Below, in pieces: positions 17,377 to 62,287 of a DNA stretch of 64,000 nt; position 1 is the first letter of the stretch, and every line of letters starts with the position of its first letter. The notes under the pieces were generated by a model. The model saw only the letters and a list, made by a program, of their open reading frames with translations. It did no database searches and was not told where the DNA came from. The position numbers and the translations under genes were made by a program. The DNA lies in NCBI RefSeq assembly GCF_008802365.1, contig NZ_VZQZ01000011.1, forward strand, positions 129,501 through 193,500, given 5' to 3'. Source of the DNA: Oryzomonas japonica (lineage in GTDB: Bacteria; Desulfobacterota; Desulfuromonadia; Geobacterales; Pseudopelobacteraceae).

Positions 17377-17404
17377 GGCGACGTGGTAGTAGGCCTCCAG
17401 CAGG

Positions 17405-17600
17405 CTGTTGAAAAAACCTGGTTGTTCAAAAATAGTCAGATCGTCGCACCCGCAGGAAGCCCCGCGGAGGCGTAGCAGCGCTACGCCGCACAATTTCACT
17501 CGAGAAATTGGACCGCGAAGGCGCCCGAAGGGTGAGGCCGCAGGCCGAAGTCACAAGGAGGCTTTCGAGGACGCGGCGAGATGGCTGTTTTTCAACAACC
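17405..17600 (+). repeat. MITE-like intergenic repeat, copy 1 (196 bp; carries an extra internal insertion of about 60 bp)
   Basis: Shares CTGTTGAAAA..CAGGTTGTTCAAAAATAGTCAGATCGTCGCACCCGCAG, the hairpin GGCGTAGC-AGC-GCTACGCC, and the 3-prime end GAGATGGCTGTTTTTCAACAACC with copies at 19359, 22248 and 52389. Termini are inverted repeats (GGTTGTTCAAAAA / TTTTTCAACAACC). Confidence 0.8.
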
Positions 17601-17602
17601 TG

Positions 17603-18517
17603 TCAGGCCTCCAGAGCCCCGATCAGGCTCTTCACATCTTCAACGCCGTTTTCCGCCAGCCACTTTTCCATGCCTTCAGCGATTTCCTGCGCAGCACCCG
17701 GATTGATGAAACTGGCGGTCCCGACCTGCACCGCCGTCGCCCCGGCCAGGATGAATTCCAGGGCGTCGCGGGCGTTCATGATGCCGCCGATGCCGATGAT
17801 CGGCAGGGAAACGGCTCGAGCCACCTGCCAGACCATGCGCAACGCCACCGGCTTGACCGCCGGGCCAGAGAGGCCGCCGGTAATGTTGGCCAGCACCGGC
17901 CGGCGGCGCTCCAGGTCGATGGCCATGCCGGTCAGGGTGTTGATCAGCGACAGGGCGTCGGCCCCCGCATCGGCGCAGGCCTTGGCCATGGAGACGATAT
18001 CCGTGACATTGGGCGAGAGCTTGACAATCAGCGGCTTGATGGTGGCCTCGCGGCAGGCCGTGACCACCTGGAAGGCACACTGGGGATCGGTGCCGAAAAC
18101 GATGCCCCCCTGCTTGACATTGGGGCAGGAGATATTCACCTCCAACCCGGCGATCTCGGGGATGGCGTCCAGACGGCGGGCCAGTTCGGCGTACTCGTCG
18201 ATGGTGTTGCCGAAGAAATTGGCAATGGCCGGGGTGGCGACCGAGCGGAGGAAGGGGACCTTTTTCTCGATAAAAGCGTCGATGCCCACGTTCTGGAGGC
18301 CGATGGCGTTCAGCATGCCGCCCGGCGTCTCCACGATGCGCGGCGTGGGATTGCCGGCCCGGGGCCTGAGGGACAGCCCCTTGGTCACGAAGGCGCCGAT
18401 AGTTTCCAGGTCCACGTATTCCGCAAATTCCTCGCCATAGCCGAAGGTACCCGAGGCGGTCATCACCGGGTTGCGCAGTTCCAGCCCTGCAATGGATACA
18501 GACAGGTCAGGTTTCAT
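17603..18517 (-). CDS. pyrD: dihydroorotate dehydrogenase, class 1B catalytic subunit
   Basis: [31 protein letters not shown]... is the typical PyrD-1B N-terminus. Lies immediately downstream of pyrK. Confidence 0.85.
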
Positions 18518-19340: not shown

Positions 19341-19358
19341 CTAACTGTCTCCTTGGAA

Positions 19359-19494
19359 GGTTGTTGAAAAACAGCCATCTCGCCGCCATCCTCGAAAGCC
19401 CTTTCGTGCGGCGTAGCGCTGCTACGCCTCCTCAGGGCATTCTGCGGGTGCGACGATCTGACTATTTTTGAACAACCTGAGTTTTTCAATAGCC
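19359..19494 (-). repeat. MITE-like intergenic repeat, copy 2 (inverted orientation)
   Basis: Reverse complement aligns with copies 1, 3 and 4 across the whole length, including the GGCGTAGCGCTGCTACGCC hairpin. Confidence 0.8.
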
Positions 19495-19504
19495 TGTCAG
19501 GCTC

Positions 19505-19954
19505 TTATAGTGTTTTTTCCATCAACAGCGCGTCCTCGACGCCTTCGTAGTACTTCGTCCGCATCCCGGTCCGGGAGAAACCGAACCGTTCGTAGAGGGC
19601 GATGGCTGCCCGGTTGGAGGCGCGGACTTCCAACCTCATGATCCCGGCCTGTTTCCCTTGGGCGATGGCAACGGCATGCTCCAGCAGCGCCCGGGCGATA
19701 CCCCGCCCCCGCAAGTGCGGCGCCACGACGATGTCCAGAATCTCGGCCTCTTCGAAAAGCGACATCAGGCAGACATAACCGCCCACCGCGCCTTCGATGA
19801 CGGCGACGAACGGAAACGAATGGGGTGACGCAAGTTCGTGCAGGAAATGTTCATAGCGCCAGGGATGGGGAAAGGAGGCCTGCTCAATGGCCAGCACGCT
19901 CTCCAGATCGGCCTTGGTCATGGGGCGGATATCAACGGTTCCCGGTGCAGACAT
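19505..19954 (-). CDS. rimI: ribosomal-protein-alanine N-acetyltransferase (GNAT family)
   Basis: GNAT motifs (ILDIVVAPHLRGRGIARALLEHA; ASNRAAIALYERFGF). Start chosen at MSAPGTVDIRPMTKADL. The longer ORF to 20098 lacks an RBS and looks like an extension artefact. Confidence 0.7.
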   Translation of the reverse strand: MSAPGTVDIRPMTKADLESVLAIEQASFPHPWRYEHFLHELASPHSFPFVAVIEGAVGGYVCLMSLFEEAEILDIVVAPHLRGRGIARALLEHAVAIAQGKQAGIMRLEVRASNRAAIALYERFGFSRTGMRTKYYEGVEDALLMEKTL

Positions 19955-22086: not shown

Positions 22087-22247
22087 TCCAGCACCCGTCT
22101 TCACGGCATCTTCGCCCCGCCCTCAATCGCACAATCCTCGACGTAGCGCTGCTACGCCTGCGGTCTTGCTCAATCGGCCAGGGCAAATCTTCCGCAAATC
22201 CGGGCGCGGTCCTGGTGGCAGTTATTTATGGATAAGCTCTAAAAAGG

Positions 22248-22381
22248 TTATAGAAAGACTCAGGTTGTTCAAAAATAGTCAGATCGTCGCACCCGCAGAA
22301 TGCACCGAGGAGACGTAGCAGCGCTACGCCGCACGAAAGGGCGTTCGAGGATGGCGGCGAGATGGCTGTTTTTCAACAACC
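22248..22381 (+). repeat. MITE-like intergenic repeat, copy 3
   Basis: About 90% identical to copy 4 over 134 bp. Confidence 0.8.
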
Positions 22382-22388
22382 TGTTCCA

Positions 22389-34154: not shown

Positions 34155-36686
34155 ATGTACGATGCTGTAGCCCTCTTTTCCTGGATTGCCCATCATTACT
34201 ACTACTTTCTCGCCTTTACCGTCCTTGTCATCCTGCTCTGGAACTCGGTGGTGGTGGTCGGCGGCAACGAGATCGCCCTTATCGAACGCAGGTGGTTCGG
34301 CAGCAAGATGCCCCAGGGACGGGTCGTGGCCCTGGGCAAAGAGGTCGGCATCCAGGCGCGGACCCTCGGCCCCGGCCTGCATTTCCTGATTCCATTCATC
34401 TACAAGGCAACCAAGAGCGTCTTTACCGAGATTTTGGAGAACGAGATAGGCCTGATCGAGTCAGTGGATGGCTCGGCCATCCCCTCCGGACGAATTTTTG
34501 CCACGGTGGTGGCCGGCCATAACTCCTTTCAGGACGGCGAAACCTTCATCAAAAACGGCGGCCAGAAGGGGCCACAGATCGAGGTGCTGCCTCCGGGCAA
34601 ATACCGGATTAACCCCTACCTGTTCAAGCTGACCAAGGGGAGTGTCACCGAGATCAAGGATTTCGAGATCGGCATCGTGGAGTCGGTTGACGGCGTCGCC
34701 ATCCCGGAGGGAAAGATCTTTGCCCAGGCAGTGGCAGGCCACTCGTCCTTTCAGAACGGCGAGGCATTCATCACCAACAGCGGCCAGAAGGGGCCACAGA
34801 TCGAGATCATCCCGCCGGGCAACTACCGTATCAACCCCTATCTGTTCAAGGTAACAAAAGGCGAGGCCACCAAGATCAATGAAGGGGAGATCGGCCTGGT
34901 CGAGTCTGCCGATGGTTCTGCTATACCGGCCGGCCGCATCTTTGCCAATGTGGTGCCGGGACACAACTCCTTCCAATCCGGCCAGGATTTCATCAAGAGT
35001 GGCGGCCAGAAAGGGCCTCAGACAGAGATTCTGCCGCCGGGCGTCTACCGTATCCATCCGAATCTCTTCAAGATCACCAAGGCCGCAGCCGTGGTAATCG
35101 CCAAAGGCGAGGTCGGCATGGTCACGGCCCAGGACGGCGCCCCCATCCCCATGGGGCGGCTCCTGGCCCAGAGCGTACAGGGACACTCCAATTACGAAAA
35201 CGGCGAGGTGTTCCTGAAGAACGGCGGCCAGAAGGGCCCCCAGATCGACGTGCTGCTGCCGGGCACCTATCGCATCAACCTGAACCTGTTCCAGGTGCAG
35301 GTTGCTCCCGCCGTGGTCATCGAGGCCAACAAGGTCGGCCTGGTAACCGCCCTGGACGGCATCCCGCTGCCGGAACGGGAATACGTGGCCTCCCCCATCA
35401 GTGGCCACAACGATTACCAGGACGGTTCCGCCTTCCTGACCAAACAGGGACAACGCGGCCCGCAATTGGACGTGCTGCGGCCGGGCACCTATTACATCAA
35501 CCCGTTCATGTTCAGCGTAGAACTCGATGATGTGGCCGTGATCGAACGCGGTCAGGTCGGGGTCGTGGTGTCGAACGTGGGCGAGGACCCCACGGAGGAA
35601 ATGAAGAAACGGCTCGGTTCCTCACAGAATGGCGCCACTGAGGAAGAAGGCAAGGAAAAGTATGTCGTGCCCACGGGATTCCGCGGCATCCAGGAGGAGG
35701 TGGCCGGTCCGGGGCGCTATTACCTCAACCGCCGGGCTTTCATGGTGTACGTGATCGACACCACCAACATCACCATCGACTGGGACGACCAGGAAGACAC
35801 CCGCTTCGACCAGTTGACGGTCATTTCCAAGGACGGCTTCCCGATCCAGGTTTCGGTCAAGGTCGTGATCCGCGTGCGTCCGGACCAAGCCCCCTACATG
35901 GTGGCCAAGGTCGGCTCCATCGACAACCTGATCCAACACGTCATCCACCCCATGATCGACTCATCGTTCCGTAACCAGGCTTCCACCGCCTCGGCCATGA
36001 ACTTTCTCCAGAGCCGTTCGGAGGAGCAGACCAAGGCCGAAAACCGTGCCCGGACAGATCTTGAGCGCTATCACGTTGAGTGCGTGTCGGTCCTGATCTG
36101 CCAGATCCGCCTGCCCGAGGAATTGATGCAGACCCAGACCAAGCGGATCATCGCCGAGCAACAGCAGGAGATGTACAAGATGGAGCAAAGGTCCCAAGCG
36201 GAGCGCACCGAGATGGAGAAAATGCGCGCCACCGCCGACCAGCAGCCCACCCTGGTGGCATCGGAGATTGCCGTGAAGGTGGCCACCCAGAAGAAGACCG
36301 AGATGATCACCCTGGCCGAAGGCACGGCAGAGTCCAAGGCCTTGGAAGGCGTCGGCGAGGGCAAGCGGCTGAAGGCCATCGGCGACGGCGAAGCGTCCAA
36401 GATCGCGGCCATCGGTGAGGCGACCGCCCAGGCCTACAGCAAACAGCAGGAGGCCATCGGCGAAGAGGCCATCAAGCAGATCAAGATCGTTGAGCTGATC
36501 TCCACCGCCATCCAAAACGGCAACATCAAGATCGTCCCGGATGTCTTGGTCACGGGCGGCGGCAATGCCACGGAAGGGCTGATGGGGATGCTGACGAAAC
36601 TGCTGCCCGGAGTGGATATACCGGCGTTGGTGAAACAATCCGCACCATCTGCCGCGATAGGGCGACCGGAGTCGGGGCGGGCGTAA
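34155..36686 (+). CDS. flotillin/SPFH (band-7) family protein with N-terminal TM and five tandem 74-aa repeats
   Basis: RBS AGGAGG 6 nt upstream. TM anchor. Repeated SPFH-N-like units (EIGxVESxDG..IP.GrIFA..V.GH..FqnGe.F...GGQKGPQ.e.LpPG.YRINP.LF). C-terminal flotillin coiled-coil/EA-rich region (EQQQEMYKMEQRSQAE...). Confidence 0.8.
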   Translation: MYDAVALFSWIAHHYYYFLAFTVLVILLWNSVVVVGGNEIALIERRWFGSKMPQGRVVALGKEVGIQARTLGPGLHFLIPFIYKATKSVFTEILENEIGLIESVDGSAIPSGRIFATVVAGHNSFQDGETFIKNGGQKGPQIEVLPPGKYRINPYLFKLTKGSVTEIKDFEIGIVESVDGVAIPEGKIFAQAVAGHSSFQNGEAFITNSGQKGPQIEIIPPGNYRINPYLFKVTKGEATKINEGEIGLVESADGSAIPAGRIFANVVPGHNSFQSGQDFIKSGGQKGPQTEILPPGVYRIHPNLFKITKAAAVVIAKGEVGMVTAQDGAPIPMGRLLAQSVQGHSNYENGEVFLKNGGQKGPQIDVLLPGTYRINLNLFQVQVAPAVVIEANKVGLVTALDGIPLPEREYVASPISGHNDYQDGSAFLTKQGQRGPQLDVLRPGTYYINPFMFSVELDDVAVIERGQVGVVVSNVGEDPTEEMKKRLGSSQNGATEEEGKEKYVVPTGFRGIQEEVAGPGRYYLNRRAFMVYVIDTTNITIDWDDQEDTRFDQLTVISKDGFPIQVSVKVVIRVRPDQAPYMVAKVGSIDNLIQHVIHPMIDSSFRNQASTASAMNFLQSRSEEQTKAENRARTDLERYHVECVSVLICQIRLPEELMQTQTKRIIAEQQQEMYKMEQRSQAERTEMEKMRATADQQPTLVASEIAVKVATQKKTEMITLAEGTAESKALEGVGEGKRLKAIGDGEASKIAAIGEATAQAYSKQQEAIGEEAIKQIKIVELISTAIQNGNIKIVPDVLVTGGGNATEGLMGMLTKLLPGVDIPALVKQSAPSAAIGRPESGRA
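34443..35552 (+). repeat. intragenic tandem repeat, 5 x 222 bp (encodes the 74-aa units of the flotillin-like protein)
   Basis: Units begin EIGLIES, EIGIVES, EIGLVES, EVGMVTA and KVGLVTA with conserved GGQKGPQ..LPPG.YRINP cores. Degenerate copies flank on both sides. Confidence 0.7.
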
Positions 36687-41916: not shown

Positions 41917-43260
41917 CTACCTCCCCGCCACAACAGCGCTGAGGATATCCTCGGTCAGGCGCAGTCCTCCGCGGAAACCGGTGTAGCCCCGGTCGAGCAC
42001 GGCACGGTTGGACACCGGGAAACTGACCGACAGGTGGGGAGCGCCGATGGTCTGGGCCAGTTCCCGCTCCAAAGAGCTGCCGATGACAAAGGCCGGGCTG
42101 AAGGCGTTATGGTACTTTTGGCCACCGGCCGGCGGCCATTTCTTCTGCAGGTGTTCGATGGCGCGGCTGCCGTCGGTCTCGAAGACCAGCGTGCTCTTGT
42201 AGCGCGACTCCAGAACGTTCAATTGGCTGGTCAGCCGGTCCTTTTCCTCGTCCTCCAAGGGGTCGGTGCAGACGGTCAGTTCGGGGAGCCATCCCAGGTC
42301 GTCGGCCAGGAACTTGGTCAGGGCCGTGGCATAGTTGGCGTCGCCCACGACGATGGCGTAACGTTGCAGGTCCAGGTCGTTGAGGCAGTCGGTCAGCGGT
42401 TCGAGGAAGCGGAAGTAGGCCTGTTTCTCCCGGCTGAGGACCGTGTTGACCTTCTGCCGGGAAATCTTCAGGGCCTTGCCCACGCTCCGCAGGAAGGCTT
42501 CCGAGGCGCTGGCGCCCACCGGCAACGACAGGCTCAGAAAGGGTGTGCCGTGGATATCTTCGAACAGCTTGGCAGCCTCAACCCCGTAGACGTGGGACAC
42601 GACGATGTTCAATGAGGCCGCCCCGGCCCCGCGGATGTTCTCTATGGTGTCTTCCGAGGTAAAGAACGAGTTGACGGTCAGCCCCAGGGCCTCCAGCAGA
42701 CGGCGCACCCCTTCCAGGTTGCCGCGCCAGAACGGGTCTGCCGACGGCACGACGCCCCACAGGTTGACGCTGTTTTTGACCTTTGCCGCGCCGCGCTCCA
42801 CGAATTCCCGGAACAGGGACTGCAAGGCCAGATCGTATCCCCAGTAGGAGTTTCCCTTGAATCCCCCGGTCTCGGCGCCGATGATCGGAACATTCTGATC
42901 GCGGAAATCGGAAACCACCGTCTTGATGTCGTCGCCGATCACCTCGGTGACGCAGCCGGTCAAGATGGCGTAGATCTGGCCGTCCATGACCTTGAGGGTA
43001 CTTTCGACCTGTTCCCTGAGGCGCGCATCGCCGCCGAAGACCACCTCCCGTTCCTGGACGTTGGAACTGGGGATGGAGAGGGGCCCGCAATACCCCCCCA
43101 CCTGGAGACCCGAGCCGCCGTTCTGGGCCCAGGCGAAGTTGCCGGCGCAGCCCGAGGCGGAATGAAGGATGGGGATGCCTCCGGGAAGGGCCGCGATGGT
43201 TGCCGCAGCACCGCCAAGTGCGCACACGTAACGGGGCCGTTCGATAAAATTGTCGCTCAT
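41917..43260 (-). CDS. nitrogenase component-1-type oxidoreductase, beta (NifK/NifN/MarK-like) subunit
   Basis: 447 aa. Nitrogenase component-1 fold (ALGGAAATIAALPGGIPILHSASGCAGNF; ILTGCVTEVIGDDI). Start overlaps the upstream stop by 4 nt. Confidence 0.8.
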   Translation of the reverse strand: MSDNFIERPRYVCALGGAAATIAALPGGIPILHSASGCAGNFAWAQNGGSGLQVGGYCGPLSIPSSNVQEREVVFGGDARLREQVESTLKVMDGQIYAILTGCVTEVIGDDIKTVVSDFRDQNVPIIGAETGGFKGNSYWGYDLALQSLFREFVERGAAKVKNSVNLWGVVPSADPFWRGNLEGVRRLLEALGLTVNSFFTSEDTIENIRGAGAASLNIVVSHVYGVEAAKLFEDIHGTPFLSLSLPVGASASEAFLRSVGKALKISRQKVNTVLSREKQAYFRFLEPLTDCLNDLDLQRYAIVVGDANYATALTKFLADDLGWLPELTVCTDPLEDEEKDRLTSQLNVLESRYKSTLVFETDGSRAIEHLQKKWPPAGGQKYHNAFSPAFVIGSSLERELAQTIGAPHLSVSFPVSNRAVLDRGYTGFRGGLRLTEDILSAVVAGR

Positions 43261-44777
43261 GCCGCTGTACCTCCACGTTGATCGATATGGGAAAAGGGGT
43301 CCGCTGTGTACCAGGCATCGCTGTAGGGAAGCCGGAGGTTTTCGCCCAGCTTGCGGTTATAGATCGGATTTTTGAGCTGGCGGTACAGGCGGCGGGCGAC
43401 CTCGTAGACCCCCCGGTAACCGATGTAAGCCAGTCCGGTGTTGTAGATGACATGGGTGGGAATGCCCAGTTTGGCGGCGGTGCCGTTGCCGTTGGCATGC
43501 CCCAGAAACAGGTCCGGCTTGATCCTTTTCAGCAGGTTGGCCTCCTCGAAGGGCTGTACGTTGGCGATATCGATCACATAATCGTCCTTGCTGGAATTGG
43601 CCAGTTTCCGATATTCCCCCTCGGCGAATTCGTCGTGGTGGAAGGAGCGGATGCCAGAGACCGTGAGCCCCAGCTCTTCCAGCAGACGGGCCGTTGCCAG
43701 GGCGCGGAACTCGCCGGCGCTGATGAAGACCCGCTTCCCCTCGAACAAGGGGCGGAAGACCTCAAGCGCCTCCCGCAGTTCCCGTTCCTCATGCTCTATG
43801 ATCCGCTCCGCCTTCTCCTCTTCGCCGAAACGGGCCGCCACGTCCCGCAGCCAGAGGCCGGTGTTCTCGATGCCGATCGGCATGTGGCGGATCAGGGAGG
43901 GGACGCCGAAACGCTCCTCCAGATAGCCGAGGAAATAGTCGTCATGGGTCGGGCAGGTGCTGACCGACAGTGCCGCCTGGGTGGCCTTGACCATGTTCTC
44001 GGGATGGGCGAAGACCGGGAAGACGTTGACATCCAGACCGAGGGTGGTCAGGAGGCGTTCCAGCTCCACCTCGTCGACACGCCCCATGGAGGACACGTTC
44101 ATAAGGTTGACGGTGCGGGGCAGCCGCTCCAGCCCCTTGAAGGGCGCCAGGCCGTCCTCGGTCGGGGCCTGTTCACCTTCCCGAAGCAGGGTACGGCCGA
44201 TGCCGTGGTAGACCGCATCGTAGGCCGTGGCCCAGATCTTGGTTTTGAAACCTTCACAATGCACCGGTAGCAGTTTGGCGGTCACCTGGGGCTGGACCCG
44301 TTGCACCACGCCGTCGATATCGTCGCCGATGATGCCGGGTACACAGCCCGCCACCACGGTGATGCTGAAGGGGCGGTACCGCCGGTCGGCCTCGATGATG
44401 GCCTTTTCCAGTTTTTCTTCGCCGCCGGTGATGACATCGGTTTCATCCATGGCCGTGGAGAGCCAGACGCCGTCCTTGGGGCGTCCCCAGCGCGCATTGC
44501 TGCCGAAGCGCACATTGGTGTTCTGGGAGTGGGTGCAGCCGCCGCAGCCGATGGCGCTGTGCAGCAACACCACATTGTCCGGAAGGGTGTTGAGCATGGC
44601 CAGGGCCGGCAGGATCAGGCAGATGGACCCTTGGGTGAAGGAGCGTTCGCCGTCGTCGTGCAGGCAGGACTTCTTGCCCTTGGCGCCGGCCATTTCGCAG
44701 ATCGTGCCGCCGTGGGCGATGCAGGCCTTGAGGCGGTCTTCACGCTTTGGGGGGGATTTCAGGTCGATAGAGCTCAT
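43257..44777 (-). CDS. nitrogenase component-1-type oxidoreductase, alpha (NifD/NifE/MarD-like) subunit
   Basis: 506 aa from MSSIDLKSPP.... CIAHGGTICEMAGAK; VLLHSAIGCGGCTHSQ; VVAGCVPGIIGDDI; HCEGF. These are hallmarks of the NifD/NifE family. Confidence 0.8.
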   Translation of the reverse strand: MSSIDLKSPPKREDRLKACIAHGGTICEMAGAKGKKSCLHDDGERSFTQGSICLILPALAMLNTLPDNVVLLHSAIGCGGCTHSQNTNVRFGSNARWGRPKDGVWLSTAMDETDVITGGEEKLEKAIIEADRRYRPFSITVVAGCVPGIIGDDIDGVVQRVQPQVTAKLLPVHCEGFKTKIWATAYDAVYHGIGRTLLREGEQAPTEDGLAPFKGLERLPRTVNLMNVSSMGRVDEVELERLLTTLGLDVNVFPVFAHPENMVKATQAALSVSTCPTHDDYFLGYLEERFGVPSLIRHMPIGIENTGLWLRDVAARFGEEEKAERIIEHEERELREALEVFRPLFEGKRVFISAGEFRALATARLLEELGLTVSGIRSFHHDEFAEGEYRKLANSSKDDYVIDIANVQPFEEANLLKRIKPDLFLGHANGNGTAAKLGIPTHVIYNTGLAYIGYRGVYEVARRLYRQLKNPIYNRKLGENLRLPYSDAWYTADPFSHIDQRGGTAA

Positions 44778-44836
44778 GGTTGTTCCTTTCTCCGTTTTTC
44801 CAGATGTTTTCATCTCGTTCCCGCTCAGGTATGGCG

Positions 44837-46198
44837 TTACAGCGTTTTTCTGATCTTTGCCGGAATCCCCCGCGAGCAGGGGATATTGGTGGAGCAATGA
44901 CCACAAGAGCCGTAATTCCATTCCTTGAAATGTTCCTTGTTGCCGTGGGTCTCGCACCTTCCGGGCAACTTGCCGGCATCGGTGACGGCCCCGGTGGGGC
45001 AACGCCTGATACAGGCATCGCAGCTTCCGTCAAAGGCATACAGACAGTAGCCGTAGACCTCCGTGTAGTTCCTTTCCGTCGGGGTCAGGTGCAATGTGGT
45101 GACGACACTGCACAGCCGCCCCAGGCATCCCTTTTCGGAGATGAAATTCTGGTGCAGGCCGAAGGTGCCGAGTCCGGCGGCGAAAGCGGCATGCCGCTCC
45201 GACCAGAACGGCCGCCAGTTATCGGAATCGTAGCGGGGGTCGATATTGGGCGCGACAGCCTTGCCACCATGCTGCGCGGCAAAACGGATCAAGGCCCGGC
45301 GGACCACGTTGAGAAACTTTGAGCCGTTCCATTTGCCGGACGAAAATTCGATGGCGGAATAACGCTGCTCCCTGGAGTAGTTGGCCGATATATGCTCCGT
45401 GAACGGCAGAAAGACGCTGATGACCGAACGGGCTCCCGGCAGCCATTCATAGGGGAGCCGGTGCCCCGGGCCGACCACCTCCGGGTCCTGAAAACGCTCG
45501 AACAACGAGTCATGGGCGGAAGCGATGCCGATCAGCGGTTCAGCCCAGATCGGCGGGTTTGTCCCTTCCGGGAGCGCGTTGCGGAAATCGGTCTTCACCA
45601 GATGAGCCACAAAATGCAACAGTTCATCGTACGGGACATCGGGCCGAACCTTTCCGTCAATCACATTTTTCGGCACGGGATCGGGCTGGAAGAACAAGGG
45701 GTTGATCCCGTTCTTGATCTCCCGCCCCCTGGTCTTCTGCTCGGGGTTGGGATGGGGCGATCCCTTGACGATCAGAGGGACGTCAAAGGGTTTTCTGAAG
45801 CCGGGGGGCGACCCCTTGGTGAAGTCATAGGCGGTCCAGATATAAAGTTGTTCGTAGATATTTTCCAGCAACTCCTCGGCCAGTTCCGTCGCGCTTTGCC
45901 CATCGTTCAGGCGGGTGGCCCCCTCTTCCGGGAACAGTTCTCCCTCTATGAAGTAGTAGACCTCCTGGCGGATGGGGATGCTGGCGTTGCGCAGGGTGGC
46001 GGTCCGGTCCGAGGTTCGCACGGCAAGTACCTTGCGCCGGTCGGGCCTGTATTCATAAAGGTTCGCCTGGAGGATGTAGTCTTTCAGGCATTCGAATACC
46101 GACTGGCGATTGAGGATATTCGGGTACGGTTCGCCCCACTTGGGGATCTCGTTGACAAACAGCGAAGTGCTTTCGGATGATAAATTTTTGCCGGACAT
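44837..46198 (-). CDS. QueG/reductive-dehalogenase-like 4Fe-4S protein (paralogue of 26105..26944 with long N-terminal extension)
   Basis: WSERHAAFAAGLGTFGLHQNFISEKGCLGRLCSVVTTLHL...CDACIRRCPTGAV...CGHCSTNIPC. Start chosen at MSGKNLSS. Confidence 0.6.
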   Translation of the reverse strand: MSGKNLSSESTSLFVNEIPKWGEPYPNILNRQSVFECLKDYILQANLYEYRPDRRKVLAVRTSDRTATLRNASIPIRQEVYYFIEGELFPEEGATRLNDGQSATELAEELLENIYEQLYIWTAYDFTKGSPPGFRKPFDVPLIVKGSPHPNPEQKTRGREIKNGINPLFFQPDPVPKNVIDGKVRPDVPYDELLHFVAHLVKTDFRNALPEGTNPPIWAEPLIGIASAHDSLFERFQDPEVVGPGHRLPYEWLPGARSVISVFLPFTEHISANYSREQRYSAIEFSSGKWNGSKFLNVVRRALIRFAAQHGGKAVAPNIDPRYDSDNWRPFWSERHAAFAAGLGTFGLHQNFISEKGCLGRLCSVVTTLHLTPTERNYTEVYGYCLYAFDGSCDACIRRCPTGAVTDAGKLPGRCETHGNKEHFKEWNYGSCGHCSTNIPCSRGIPAKIRKTL

Positions 46199-51703: not shown

Positions 51704-52360
51704 TCACAGATCCCGTTTATCGGCCAGCCGCTTGTAGTACGAGTGACTGGTGTACAGCGCGCCGACCGGGTTATGGGCCAGCACGCGGTCCTTGACCACA
51801 AGGTAGGTTACCGGCGCTTCGGAATATTTTATGAACATGGAATCGTGGCCGACACACAGGCCGACGATTATGTTCAAATCGGTTTTTTCCCTGGCCAGGA
51901 TGCGGGCCTGAAGCACCGGGTTGCAGGCCGATTCGTGCTGCCCTTTGTTGATCTTGAACTCTTCAGGAATACCCAATTCGGTCTTGTCCACCGAACCGAC
52001 CTTGCAGGCCACGGTATAGCTCTGGATTCCCTGGGCATCGAGAAACTTGATGAAGTTTTTGGTCTCGTTGATCAGGCCGACGCAGGTGGCGATGCCGACC
52101 TTCTTTGCCTTGATGCGGCGCGCAAAGGCGGCCACTTCCTCCACGCGGGTCAACCTGCCGTAGTAGGTCCCTTCGACCTCTGCGGCGGCGTTGGAAATTT
52201 TCGAAACCAACGGATCTTCGCGATAAATGCGGTTGACCTCCTCAATTTCCTGTTTATCCTCGGCCTCGGTCAGGCAGAAGGCGGGAAAAACGGAGGTCCG
52301 CGAGTTGCAGTTGATGGTGGCGCAGTCGCCACAGGTCAGTACGTTCTTTTTCTTGGCCAT
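51704..52360 (-). CDS. Cys-rich metal-binding protein, DUF1847-like
   Basis: LTCGDCATINCNSRTSVFPAFCLTEAE...GLCVGHDSMF is a DUF1847-type Cys pattern. 218 aa. Confidence 0.5.
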   Translation of the reverse strand: MAKKKNVLTCGDCATINCNSRTSVFPAFCLTEAEDKQEIEEVNRIYREDPLVSKISNAAAEVEGTYYGRLTRVEEVAAFARRIKAKKVGIATCVGLINETKNFIKFLDAQGIQSYTVACKVGSVDKTELGIPEEFKINKGQHESACNPVLQARILAREKTDLNIIVGLCVGHDSMFIKYSEAPVTYLVVKDRVLAHNPVGALYTSHSYYKRLADKRDL

Positions 52361-52388
52361 GATTCTCTCCGAAGTAGGGTATTTGCGA

Positions 52389-52522
52389 CTGTTGAAAAGC
52401 TCAGGTTGTTCAAAAATAGTCAGATCGTCGCACCCGGAGAAGGCCCTGAGGAGGCGTAGCAGCGCTACGCCGCACGAAAGGGCTTTCGAGGAGGGCGGCG
52501 AGATGGCTGTTTTTCAACAACC
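52389..52522 (+). repeat. MITE-like repeat, copy 4 (inserted inside the nif-like operon between the nifH-like and DUF1847 genes)
   Basis: Aligns end-to-end with copy 3. Confidence 0.8.
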
Positions 52523-52524
52523 TC

Positions 52525-53400
52525 TTAGATGCTTGCCCCGCTGCTGCGGACCTCCCCGGCCTCAACGGCCAGGATCTGATCGGACCAGTCGGCGGCCCAC
52601 TTGCGCAGCGCCTCCGCGCTCAGCGGCTCCGGCACCCTGGATTCCGTGTGGTTGGCGATCCGGTCGGCAAGCTTCTTATAGACCTGGGCCTGCTCGGAAT
52701 CGGGGAAGGCCTCGATGGTGGTCTTACCCTGCAACTCGGCCTGGGTGACGGTGATCGAACGAGGTACATACTCCATCACCTGGGTGTTGGTGCGTGCCAC
52801 GAAGTCGTCGATGATATGTTTGGCATAGGGTGCATTGACGGAGTTGGCGATCACGCCGCCCAAAAGTGCCCCACCGTTGTTGGAGTACTTCTTGATGCCG
52901 GTGAACAGATTGTTTGCGGCGTAAATGGCCATAAAGTCCGACGACGACACCGTGAAAACGTGCTCGGCGATCCCTTCCCGGATCGGTACGGCAAAGCCGC
53001 CGCAGACCACGTCCCCCAGGACATCGTAGATTACGTAATCCAGGTCCAGTTCCTCGAAAACCCGTTGCTGTTTGAGCAGCTCAATGGCGGTGATAATGCC
53101 GCGACCAGCGCAGCCGACCCCCGGCGCGGGGCCGCCGGCCTCCACGCAGTGGACGCCGTTGAAACCGGAGAAGACCACCTCGCTGGCCTTGGCGCTCTTC
53201 TTTTCCCGCAGGGTGTCAAGGATAGTGGGTATATAGTTGCCCCCCCGCAGGGTGACGGTGGAGTCGTTCTTGGGGTCGCAGCCGACCTGCATGACCTTGT
53301 AGCCTGCTACCGACAGGGCGGCGGTGATATTGGAGGTGGTGGTGGATTTACCGATGCCTCCCTTGCCATAGATCGCTATCTGTTTCGGTTTTTTTGCCAT
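52525..53400 (-). CDS. nitrogenase Fe-protein-like ATPase (NifH/BchL/CfbC/MarH family)
   Basis: P-loop [15 protein letters not shown], switch [10 protein letters not shown] and both 4Fe-4S ligand cysteines (GVGCAGRG; DVVCGGFA) are conserved. 291 aa. Confidence 0.85.
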
Positions 53401-60089: not shown

Positions 60090-60224
60090 GGCACGTCTCC
60101 TTTTGAATGGAAAAAGGCCGGGAAATGCCCATGATTATGGGACATTGAACCCGGCCTCCGGTTTTTCCGGTCAGCACAGAATCGTTTGTCGCAGGCCGTG
60201 GGGGCCTGTTCTGTAGTTACGGGC

Positions 60225-61105: not shown

Positions 61106-61181
61106 GGGCACATAGCTTAGCTGGTAGAGCAGCCGACTCTTAATCGGCAGGTCGTCGGTTCGATCCCGACTGTGCCCACCA
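61106..61181 (+). tRNA. tRNA-Lys (anticodon CTT)
   Basis: Acceptor GGGCACA/TGTGCCC, D-arm GCTT-AGCTGGTA-GAGC, anticodon stem GCCGA/TCGGC with loop CTCTTAA, T-arm GTCGG-TTCGATC-CCGAC, discriminator A plus CCA. Confidence 0.85.
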
Positions 61182-62105: not shown

Positions 62106-62287
62106 GGGTCGCCTCGTTTCCCATCCGGCAATCCGTCGCGGGACTCCGAACGTTTGAAAAGCAAGAGGCCGGGGCTGCCCATGGAAGGGACATGAACCCC
62201 GGCCTCCGGTTTATCCGGTCAGCGCGGAAAAGATGATTGATCGTTGTTCAAAGTTGCGAACGGAACCCCGTCGCCGCCGTTTGAGGA

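Follow-up and report, generated by a model that had tools for sequence, protein, structure and literature searches.

We found that the 164-nt gap between a nifH-like gene and a DUF1847 gene in a nitrogenase-like operon of Oryzomonas japonica is largely taken up by a 139-nt hairpin repeat. This repeat (positions 52386-52524 of the 64,000-nt stretch of DNA analysed, hereafter the window) is one of four full copies in the window, and we call it copy D. Copy D is probably a non-autonomous mobile element of a family common in Geobacteraceae, which inserted at the nifH-like stop codon in one lineage and whose transcription by read-through is tolerated. The element is MITE-like (similar to a miniature inverted-repeat transposable element), being short and noncoding, with 13-nt inverted termini, many dispersed copies and presence/absence polymorphism. 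Read in this way, the gap owes its length to a common repeat that inserted in one lineage, and would not be a regulatory region of the nitrogenase-like cluster. As a finding this is ordinary, since copy D adds one member to a repeat family that Geobacter genomes were already known to contain; of interest are the cross-phylum reach of the family, the way in which its termini and interior behave as modules, and the fact that the strand that folds is mostly not the one transcribed.

An earlier note on this DNA had recognized a copy of a dispersed MITE-like hairpin repeat within a co-directional nif-like cluster. Indeed, the four window copies are 91-96% alike, and both genes flanking copy D lie on the minus strand. 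Copy D matches copy B at 96% over 135 nt and copy C at 92% over 133 nt, and a 29-mer taken from it has two matches (0.00 in shuffles). With a covariance model built from a 32-member alignment that includes copy D itself, copies B, C and D score 97-99 bits (E about 1e-26), against 48-50 bits for the opposite strand. The element is thus real, but the 134-bp span given for it in the note, 52389-52522, was off by 2-4 nt at its ends. Nor does it fill the entire gap, as had been claimed: it occupies 139 of the 164 nt, and the remaining 25 nt are a spacer that holds a ribosome-binding site. The termini GGTTGTTCAAAAA and TTTTTCAACAACC are complementary at 12 of 13 positions and are found in all copies; the left one is invariant in 32 diverse aligned members, although the search pattern itself selected for this terminus. 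An 18-nt left extension outside the hairpin is present in 30 of 87 family members. The 139 nt have no coding capacity, being crossed by shadow reading frames only, and their right end directly touches the nifH-like TAA (52525-52527). We refer to the better-folding strand of the element as its + form; in copy D this form is antisense to the operon.

To place the insertion in time, we compared junctions on the contigs of close NifH-like homologues (loci numbered L; W denotes the window's own locus), with DNA identity to the window taken over the 876-nt gene. The contig of L086 (NifH protein 99%, nifH DNA 96.3% identical) ends inside the same element, right after the TAA. In contrast, L087 (protein 96%, DNA 87.2%) has the same order of nifX-like, nifH-like, DUF1847 and ABC genes with only a 21-nt spacer, TAATTCCATCCTTCGGAGATATAC, before the ATG. 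The element is likewise absent from L089 (95%, 86.6%) and L094/95 (96%, 88.9%), both without DUF1847, and from L096 and L097 (each 94%, 86.4%), where a spacer of 192-265 nt in L096, and one of the same kind in L097, resembles by eye a decayed DUF1847 gene. In the nifH DNA matrix, W groups with L086 at 96.3%, and all others are at or below 89%. By this sequence comparison, the insertion postdates the split of W from L094 and L087 but predates that from L086. A recent insertion, which the earlier note had offered as one of its alternatives, is thus borne out in a lineage-specific sense; the comparison of orthologous loci that it had proposed found relatives without the element, so the same element does not stand at this site in all relatives.

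The same junction has been used more than once. L092/93 (protein 96%, DNA 85.4%) and L090/91 of Geobacter sp. SVR (88%, 81.6%) carry an element of the same family, in the same orientation and at the same spot. A single ancient insertion shared by W and L092 is unlikely, because L092 branches outside the empty-site lineages. The W and L092 elements show about 7 differences in their first 62 nt, counted by eye (about 89% identity), whereas third codon positions of nifH are 62% identical. Since L092 and L090 lie outside the empty-site lineages, and since the elements are closer than the third codon positions, independent insertions are more likely than one ancient event. L088 (protein 96%, DNA 87.2%; nifH DNA 100% identical to L087) has at this spot a different, 176-nt hairpin element with a TAATTC duplication. 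At least two other lineages have thus probably been struck independently at this site, and a different hairpin element has struck it once, so that it looks like a hot spot. Junctions with the element, without it and with another one in its place, L087 and L088 having identical nifH DNA, would offer a clean natural test of hairpin repeats in polycistronic mRNAs.

We made several further observations at these junctions. The L088 element (L088:1711-1886, compared with L087:3877-3897, both on metagenome contigs) is inserted 3 nt after the nifH-like stop, has termini GTTTCCGTCCGGAAA and apex GGCGTACCGATGTACGCC, and folds at -75.6 kcal/mol (z = -7.1); its absence from L087 looks like a very recent polymorphism. 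We rejected it as a homologue of copy D, as the window holds no copy of its family. In L092:2377-2469 and L093:1221-1412 the element is interrupted at its apex by another palindromic repeat (…CCCTCTCCCATAGGGAGAGGGC…), a nested insertion. DUF1847 itself varies, being intact in W, L087 and L088, remnant-like in L096/L097, and absent in L089, L094/95 and Geobacter sp. SVR.

The flanks of the element point to the way in which it may have arrived. In the right flanks, 3 nt past CAACAAC, a reverse-complement stop codon comes first in 44 of 87 members (background 3%) and YTAR in 33 of 87; the left flanks of extension-bearing members are YTAR-rich too. Left and right 4-mers of the same element agree at 68 positions, as compared with 54.2 in permuted pairs (p = 0.002). 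Such agreement is seen, for example, in L025 and L082 (CTAA/CTAA) and in L029 (TTAA/TTAA); L036 has ATAGA on both sides, with the right boundary shifted by one base. The flanks fit a short target duplication at YTAR or TA, where a 2-bp TA duplication is indistinguishable from one of 4 bp. DDE transposons of the IS5 group and the IS630 type typically use YTAR and TA targets. In intergenic DNA rich in G+C, stop codons are the obvious YTAR sites, and through duplication the stop is preserved. When the spacer of W is aligned with the empty site of L087, AAATACCCTAC stands against TAATTCCATCC. The element probably inserted at a YTAR-type target formed by the nifH-like TAA, in the lineage of W and its closest sampled relative, after their split from the relatives with the 21-nt spacer; target duplication would have kept the nifH-like stop codon, and the original spacer with the DUF1847 ribosome-binding site would have been pushed 139 nt downstream. 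Mobility would then have been mediated by a transposase. We also considered an integron attC site and rejected it: on neither strand do the termini fit the core sites (RYYYAAC, GTTRRRY), and copies lie between housekeeping genes, not in arrays.

The earlier note had described a strong hairpin in the element and had made its effect depend on orientation; both points hold. The core of copy D, 52403-52524, forms a single long imperfect hairpin. Its parts are an outer stem, GGTTGTTC/CAACAACC, in which one C/C mismatch is conserved; a stretch of A5/T5; a lower stem containing an internal loop of tandem G·A; and the G+C-rich apical palindrome GGCGTAGCAGCGCTACGCC. Folded as RNA, the 164-nt gap reaches -75.0 kcal/mol on the plus strand (z = -6.5) and -55.9 kcal/mol on the minus strand, the mRNA sense (z = -3.8). 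In 32 members less than 90% identical, 92.6% of the cells of the consensus structure pair, and cells with both sides changed number 150, as compared with 53 in shuffles, none of 500 shuffles being as high. Predicted pairs include 89 G·U and only 9 A·C, with G·U exceeding A·C in 30 of the 32 diverse members. The + form is the more stable in 79 of 84 members with RNA parameters (mean -61.1 versus -51.1 kcal/mol), and DNA parameters favour it in 80 of 84; between the two strands the difference is about 19 kcal/mol in copy D and averages about 10 kcal/mol in the family. One strand has clearly been selected to fold.

Such a strand bias raises the question of single-stranded DNA mobility of the REPIN/RAYT or IS200/IS605 kind, in which the one-strand hairpin would be the substrate and the orientation of copies would reflect the direction of replication. 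We regard this as improbable. The excess of G·U over A·C, the greater stability of the + form with DNA parameters, the bias in orientation relative to genes (below), an apex containing GTAG...CTAC, and a conserved interior whose termini have been exchanged between subfamilies would all fit it. However, the similar YTAR tetranucleotides on both flanks look like a target duplication, and HUH single-strand transposition is not known to produce one. In most cases the strand that folds is the non-coding one; judged by IS608, this runs counter to expectation if genes follow replication. The orientations of copies B and D, 33 kb apart, are opposite, and no tyrosine transposase was found, though no search aimed at one was made.

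Among Geobacter-type copies between genes of the same direction, the weak form lies in the mRNA sense in 22 and the opposite form in 5 (binomial p = 0.0015), non-Geobacter loci being mostly without gene calls. A stop codon stands exactly 3 nt from the right end in 19 cases and 3-5 nt from it in about 25, as compared with 4-5 cases for the left end. Copy D follows the family majority, and the operon mRNA carries the weak form. The bias would be expected if selection removes strongly terminating insertions in operons.

The earlier note had also proposed that the hairpin could be an internal terminator. For copy D this is unlikely. Read as mRNA, the stem that adjoins the U-run has only -8.7 kcal/mol, holds two C·A mismatches and is set off by 4 nt unpaired before UUUUU in the minimum-energy fold, whereas on the opposite strand the stem has -18.9 kcal/mol and is flush with the U-run; the inner hairpin has -38.3 and -54.7 kcal/mol, respectively. 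The weak stem and the unpaired bases before the U-run make copy D a poor intrinsic terminator. A scan of the region for consensus terminators found none; with loops limited to 8 nt, it would miss long hairpins. A true Rho-independent terminator ending the nifX-like/nifH-like transcript could draw on the length of the mRNA-sense hairpin and its z of -3.8, and on the U5 run at the 3′ foot of the inner stem. Against it, DUF1847 and nine further co-directional genes follow the element with only 25 nt of promoter space, and a family member lies inside the dapAB-dapL unit of Geobacter metallireducens, which is described as co-transcribed (PMC2700814). Taken together, we consider true termination here extremely unlikely.

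Tolerated read-through thus appears the most likely fate of the transcript. In our model, the operon mRNA would carry the weaker hairpin, in which A·C mismatches replace the G·U pairs of the other strand and no tight stem precedes the U-run, and the outer stem would cause at most mild attenuation or offer a cleavage site to a double-strand-specific RNase. By analogy with Correia elements (PMC10969869), this stem of about 20 bp is a possible RNase III substrate. The distance from the nifH-like stop to the next start grew from 21 nt in the empty site to 164 nt with a stable hairpin between, so that close translational coupling of nifH-like and DUF1847 is probably lost. We also considered whether the left extension (CUUUUC) masks the DUF1847 ribosome-binding site, and rejected this: the predicted unpaired probability of the site, 0.42 with the element, 0.54 without it and 0.23 in the empty-site relative, shows no clear effect.

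A stronger role, in which copy D would have been selected as a cis-regulatory RNA module (to attenuate, process or stabilise the transcript and so set the ratio of nifX-like and nifH-like to DUF1847, transporter and D/K-like products), seems to us doubtful at best. It would account for the same family standing, equally oriented, after the nifH-like stop of W/L086, L092/93 and L090/91, three lineages that do not group with one another, and for a structure conserved with covariation. The authors who first recorded the family read it as RNA elements (PMC2700814), and Correia and ERIC elements alter mRNA fate via RNase III and RNase E (reviewed in PMC10969869). However, the same operon exists without the element in L087, L089 and L094; L088 has an unrelated hairpin at the same spot while its nifH DNA equals that of the empty-site L087, which looks like a hot spot and not a requirement. 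Moreover, copies stand beside unrelated genes, and the strand selected to fold is antisense here.

Another alternative is an outward promoter in the element that would give antisense RNA to the nifH-like 3′ end from copy D and would drive pyrK from copy B. We consider this very unlikely. A sigma-70-like match, TTGAAA-17-AATAGT, has its -35 part in the left extension, which is conserved in 30 members, and the motif of copy B faces pyrK. Yet the match reaches only 9 of 12 consensus positions; the region has two such sites as compared with a shuffle mean of 0.9, and many members have AACGGT for AATAGT or are without the extension. In copy B the motif lies at about 19466-19494 on the minus strand, with a ribosome-binding site 5 nt and an ATG 17 nt past the element.

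Several points weigh against copy D being a mobile, lineage-specific insertion that is read through. Flanking 4-mers are identical in only 4 of 30 scored members, and the target duplication of copy D is imperfect (CTAA/CAAA). We found no parent insertion sequence: in the 85 listed 8-kb loci no pair of termini lies 0.7-3 kb apart, only further copies of about 120 nt, and there was no plasmid match. A cut-and-paste MITE leaves the cross-phylum conservation of the interior and the strand-selected folding unexplained. The orientation count of 22 to 5 comes from the gene calls of a home-made codon-score caller that still errs and includes loci that are not all independent (L010 and L041, for example, are orthologous), and tolerated read-through at this locus is a prediction from folding.

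The last suggestion of the earlier note, that the insertion split an ancestral BHDK arrangement, is contradicted by the relatives. L087 keeps the order nifX-like, nifH-like, DUF1847, ABC with its 21-nt spacer only, and in L089 and L094 transporter genes lie between H and the D/K-like gene in the absence of any element. Since DUF1847 and/or sulfonate-type ABC genes separate H from D/K in element-free relatives, it was not the element that separated them; this layout of the operon, with transporter genes in between, is older than the insertion. The nifH-like product scores 403.8 bits with TIGR01287 (cut-off 394.35); the products of the D-like and K-like genes are far below the nitrogenase cut-off. 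A homocysteine synthase gene lies near these two genes, and we take the cluster to resemble the methylthio-alkane reductase type of nitrogenase-like sulfur-salvage cluster.

To see how far the family extends, we scanned one genome per species for both termini 78-108 nt apart, and found at least 85 loci in public genomes. Among the matches listed, near-identical copies of D occur in Oryzomonas, Pelotalea and Geobacter, and elements with the same termini and size occur in Nitrospira, Myxococcales, Desulfovibrionaceae, Bdellovibrio, Nitrospinota, Planctomycetes and Clostridia; outside the Geobacter group the interior sequence is different and the architecture the same. Complete genomes with copies include those of Pelotalea chapellei DSM 13688, Geobacter sp. 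OR-1, Geobacter sp. SVR and Bdellovibrio bacteriovorus Bd5. Copies adjoin unrelated genes (pyrD, pyrK, gabD-like, two-component, RND, ABC). All-against-all BLASTP of 327 neighbouring proteins showed no gene travelling with the element, the largest clusters being two-component, P-type ATPase, RND and ABC proteins, and the lack of a recurrent neighbouring family fits a non-autonomous element. In the plasmids of PLSDB, a BLAST search with the element gave no match. Rfam 15 has no such family: the window as a whole gave only two tRNAs at gathering scores, and 52300-52620 gave nothing meaningful at E up to 10. A full-text literature search with the terminal 12-mers returned unrelated primer matches only.

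The family had, however, been mentioned in a genome paper, as the 'predicted short RNA elements' Gmet_R1001-R1024 of G. metallireducens (Aklujkar et al. 2009, BMC Microbiol 9:109, Figure S1; PMC2700814). Defined there by BLAST matches, its members were read as RNA elements, and the paper gave neither a structure model nor evidence of mobility nor a function (PMC2700814). Over 91 columns the interior of copy D shares 87% identity with Gmet_R1019, and over 89 columns 84% with R1006, whereas the outer 14 nt or so on each side do not align; an alike interior with different termini indicates that the two have recombined between subfamilies. The Gmet_R10xx elements share the central palindrome GRCGTAGCGCTGCTACGCC (GGCGTAGCGCTGCTACGCC on the minus strand of D) and are likewise intergenic, multicopy and also found within operons. 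They are close in size (about 112-115 nt, as compared with the 122-nt core here) and differ in their ends (GCGGCTTTT... as compared with GGTTGTTGAAAAA), the termini of the copy D type being CAGGTTGTTGAAAAA ends. One G. metallireducens member lies between dapAB and dapL, the latter described as co-transcribed with dapAB; this element and the upstream dapA leader feature are on the plus strand with rising coordinates, and the element is aligned in its weak form (PMC2700814). We infer that it has the same orientation as copy D.

Absent from Rfam and mentioned only in the 2009 genome paper, with termini and architecture that cross phyla and an unexplained strand-specific folding, the family might be more than a decayed transposon. 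It would then be part of a superfamily of hairpins of about 120 nt spanning Geobacteraceae, Nitrospira, Myxococcota, Desulfovibrionaceae, Bdellovibrio, Nitrospinota and Clostridia. Identical 13-nt termini across phyla, a compensatory architecture, a strand selected to fold, an end exactly 3 nt from the stop with a preferred orientation, and the modular exchange of termini and interior point that way; we hold this unlikely, though worth keeping in mind. If true, it would imply either an undescribed mobility mechanism with a single-stranded intermediate or a host-level function of the folded strand. Apart from these pointers, an unclassified chromosome from a metagenome-assembled genome (L040:3326-3463) has a 133-nt sequence with the same 13-nt termini around an unrelated interior without the family hairpin, which suggests that the termini are able to act as a unit on their own.

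Known repeats resemble the element in part. ERIC (about 127 bp) is likewise an imperfect palindrome of about 120-130 bp that is intergenic, often at gene 3′ ends, and forms a long hairpin when transcribed, but it has no sequence similarity to the element and lives in different host phyla. To our knowledge, neither cross-phylum invariant termini nor a fixed 3-nt abutment to stop codons has been reported for ERIC. Its effect on mRNA depends on orientation, with RNase E in Yersinia (PMC10969869; table in PMC3184786). Correia elements (NEMIS/CREE) are MITEs of 104-157 bp with inverted termini and a TA-containing target, as here, but without sequence similarity and confined to one genus. They carry functional promoters and an IHF site. 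In Neisseria they are co-transcribed with genes, and the hairpin of their termini is cut by RNase III (PMC10969869). Chunjie, a MITE found in Geobacter uraniireducens Rf4 (Chen et al. 2008), has a very stable RNA fold (PMC3184786, PMC10969869). It is 178-235 bp long and A+T-rich, with 21-bp termini and 9-bp direct repeats, whereas our element has 139 bp, is G+C-rich and bears 13-nt termini and YTAR flanks of about 4 bp. REP/REPIN sequences are extragenic palindromes that form single-strand hairpins and often touch or supply stops, and the apex here contains GTAG; GTAG REPs have been reported to provide TAG stops (PMC3733652). However, REPs are 20-40 nt units tagged at one end by GTAG/CGTC and set in inverted doublets in REPINs, whereas the only GTAG here is in the apical stem of a 122-nt hairpin. 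REP/REPIN with RAYT make no target duplication, so the duplication-like flanks argue against membership, while the strand asymmetry would fit.

Table. Copy D, its parts and surroundings, and the other repeat copies and nitrogenase-like genes of the window.
Feature	Position	Strand	Basis or remark
Whole repeat element, copy D	52386-52524	+	Alignment of the four window copies, repeat search, empty site L087, family consensus
Covariance-model match to copy D	52402-52524	+	99.2 bits
Left extension, outside hairpin, 18 nt	52386-52403	+	Degenerate direct copy of left terminus; family consensus CAGGCTGTTGAAAAACTCAG
Left terminus GGTTGTTCAAAAA, 5′ arm of outer stem	52404-52416	+	Family comparison
Right terminus TTTTTCAACAACC, 3′ arm of outer stem	52510-52522	+	One conserved C/C mismatch with left terminus
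Apical palindrome GGCGTAGCAGCGCTACGCC	52453-52471	+	Minus strand reads GGCGTAGCGCTGCTACGCC, the G. metallireducens family motif GRCGTAGCGCTGCTACGCC
Sigma-70-like consensus match TTGAAA-17-AATAGT	52392-52420	+	9/12 positions; left extension and left terminus; points antisense into nifH-like gene
nifH-like stop codon TAA and one base, presumed target site	52525-52528	-	CTAA on minus strand, TTAG on plus strand
Presumed second, decayed copy of target duplication	52382-52385	-	CAAA, as compared with CTAA at other end; suggested by L087 empty-site alignment
Original intergenic spacer, 25 nt	52361-52385	-	DUF1847 ribosome-binding site GGAGAG at 52365-52370; homologous to whole 21-nt L087 spacer
DUF1847 start ATG	52358-52360	-	
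nifH-like gene, operon-upstream	52525-53400	-	Pfam Fer4_NifH, E = 3.9e-100
DUF1847 gene, operon-downstream	51704-52360	-	Pfam DUF1847, E = 2.7e-62
D-like gene	43257-45002		Product far below nitrogenase cut-off
K-like gene	41917-43260		Product far below nitrogenase cut-off
Copy A	17401-17602	+	Internal insert of about 63 nt at about 17478-17540 (…GCGCCCGAAGGGTGAGGCCGCAGGCCGAAGTC…)
Copy B	19358-19508	-	Full copy
Copy C	22232-22384	+	Full copy

Other repeats in the window deserve brief mention. The insert module of copy A is found again at locus L053, within the element there. Near both ends of copy A, at 17392-17401 (overlapping the first aligned base) and 17605-17614, is a 10-nt direct repeat, AGGCCTCCAG, which exceeds the flanks of about 4 bp found elsewhere. 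Directly left of copy C, at about 22095-22201, is a fifth, diverged element with apex GACGTAGCGCTGCTACGCC and termini unlike those of copies A-D; it is 81% identical to Gmet_R1003 of G. metallireducens over 107 columns and gives a weak covariance hit (14.8 bits). Positions 34392-35297 hold a 222-nt unit in four tandem copies, 68-83% identical, which is probably an in-frame protein repeat. Finally, a 43-nt direct repeat (86% identical) is found at 60139-60181 and, 2 kb away, at 62187-62229, its first copy lying about 0.9 kb before the tRNA gene at 61106-61178.

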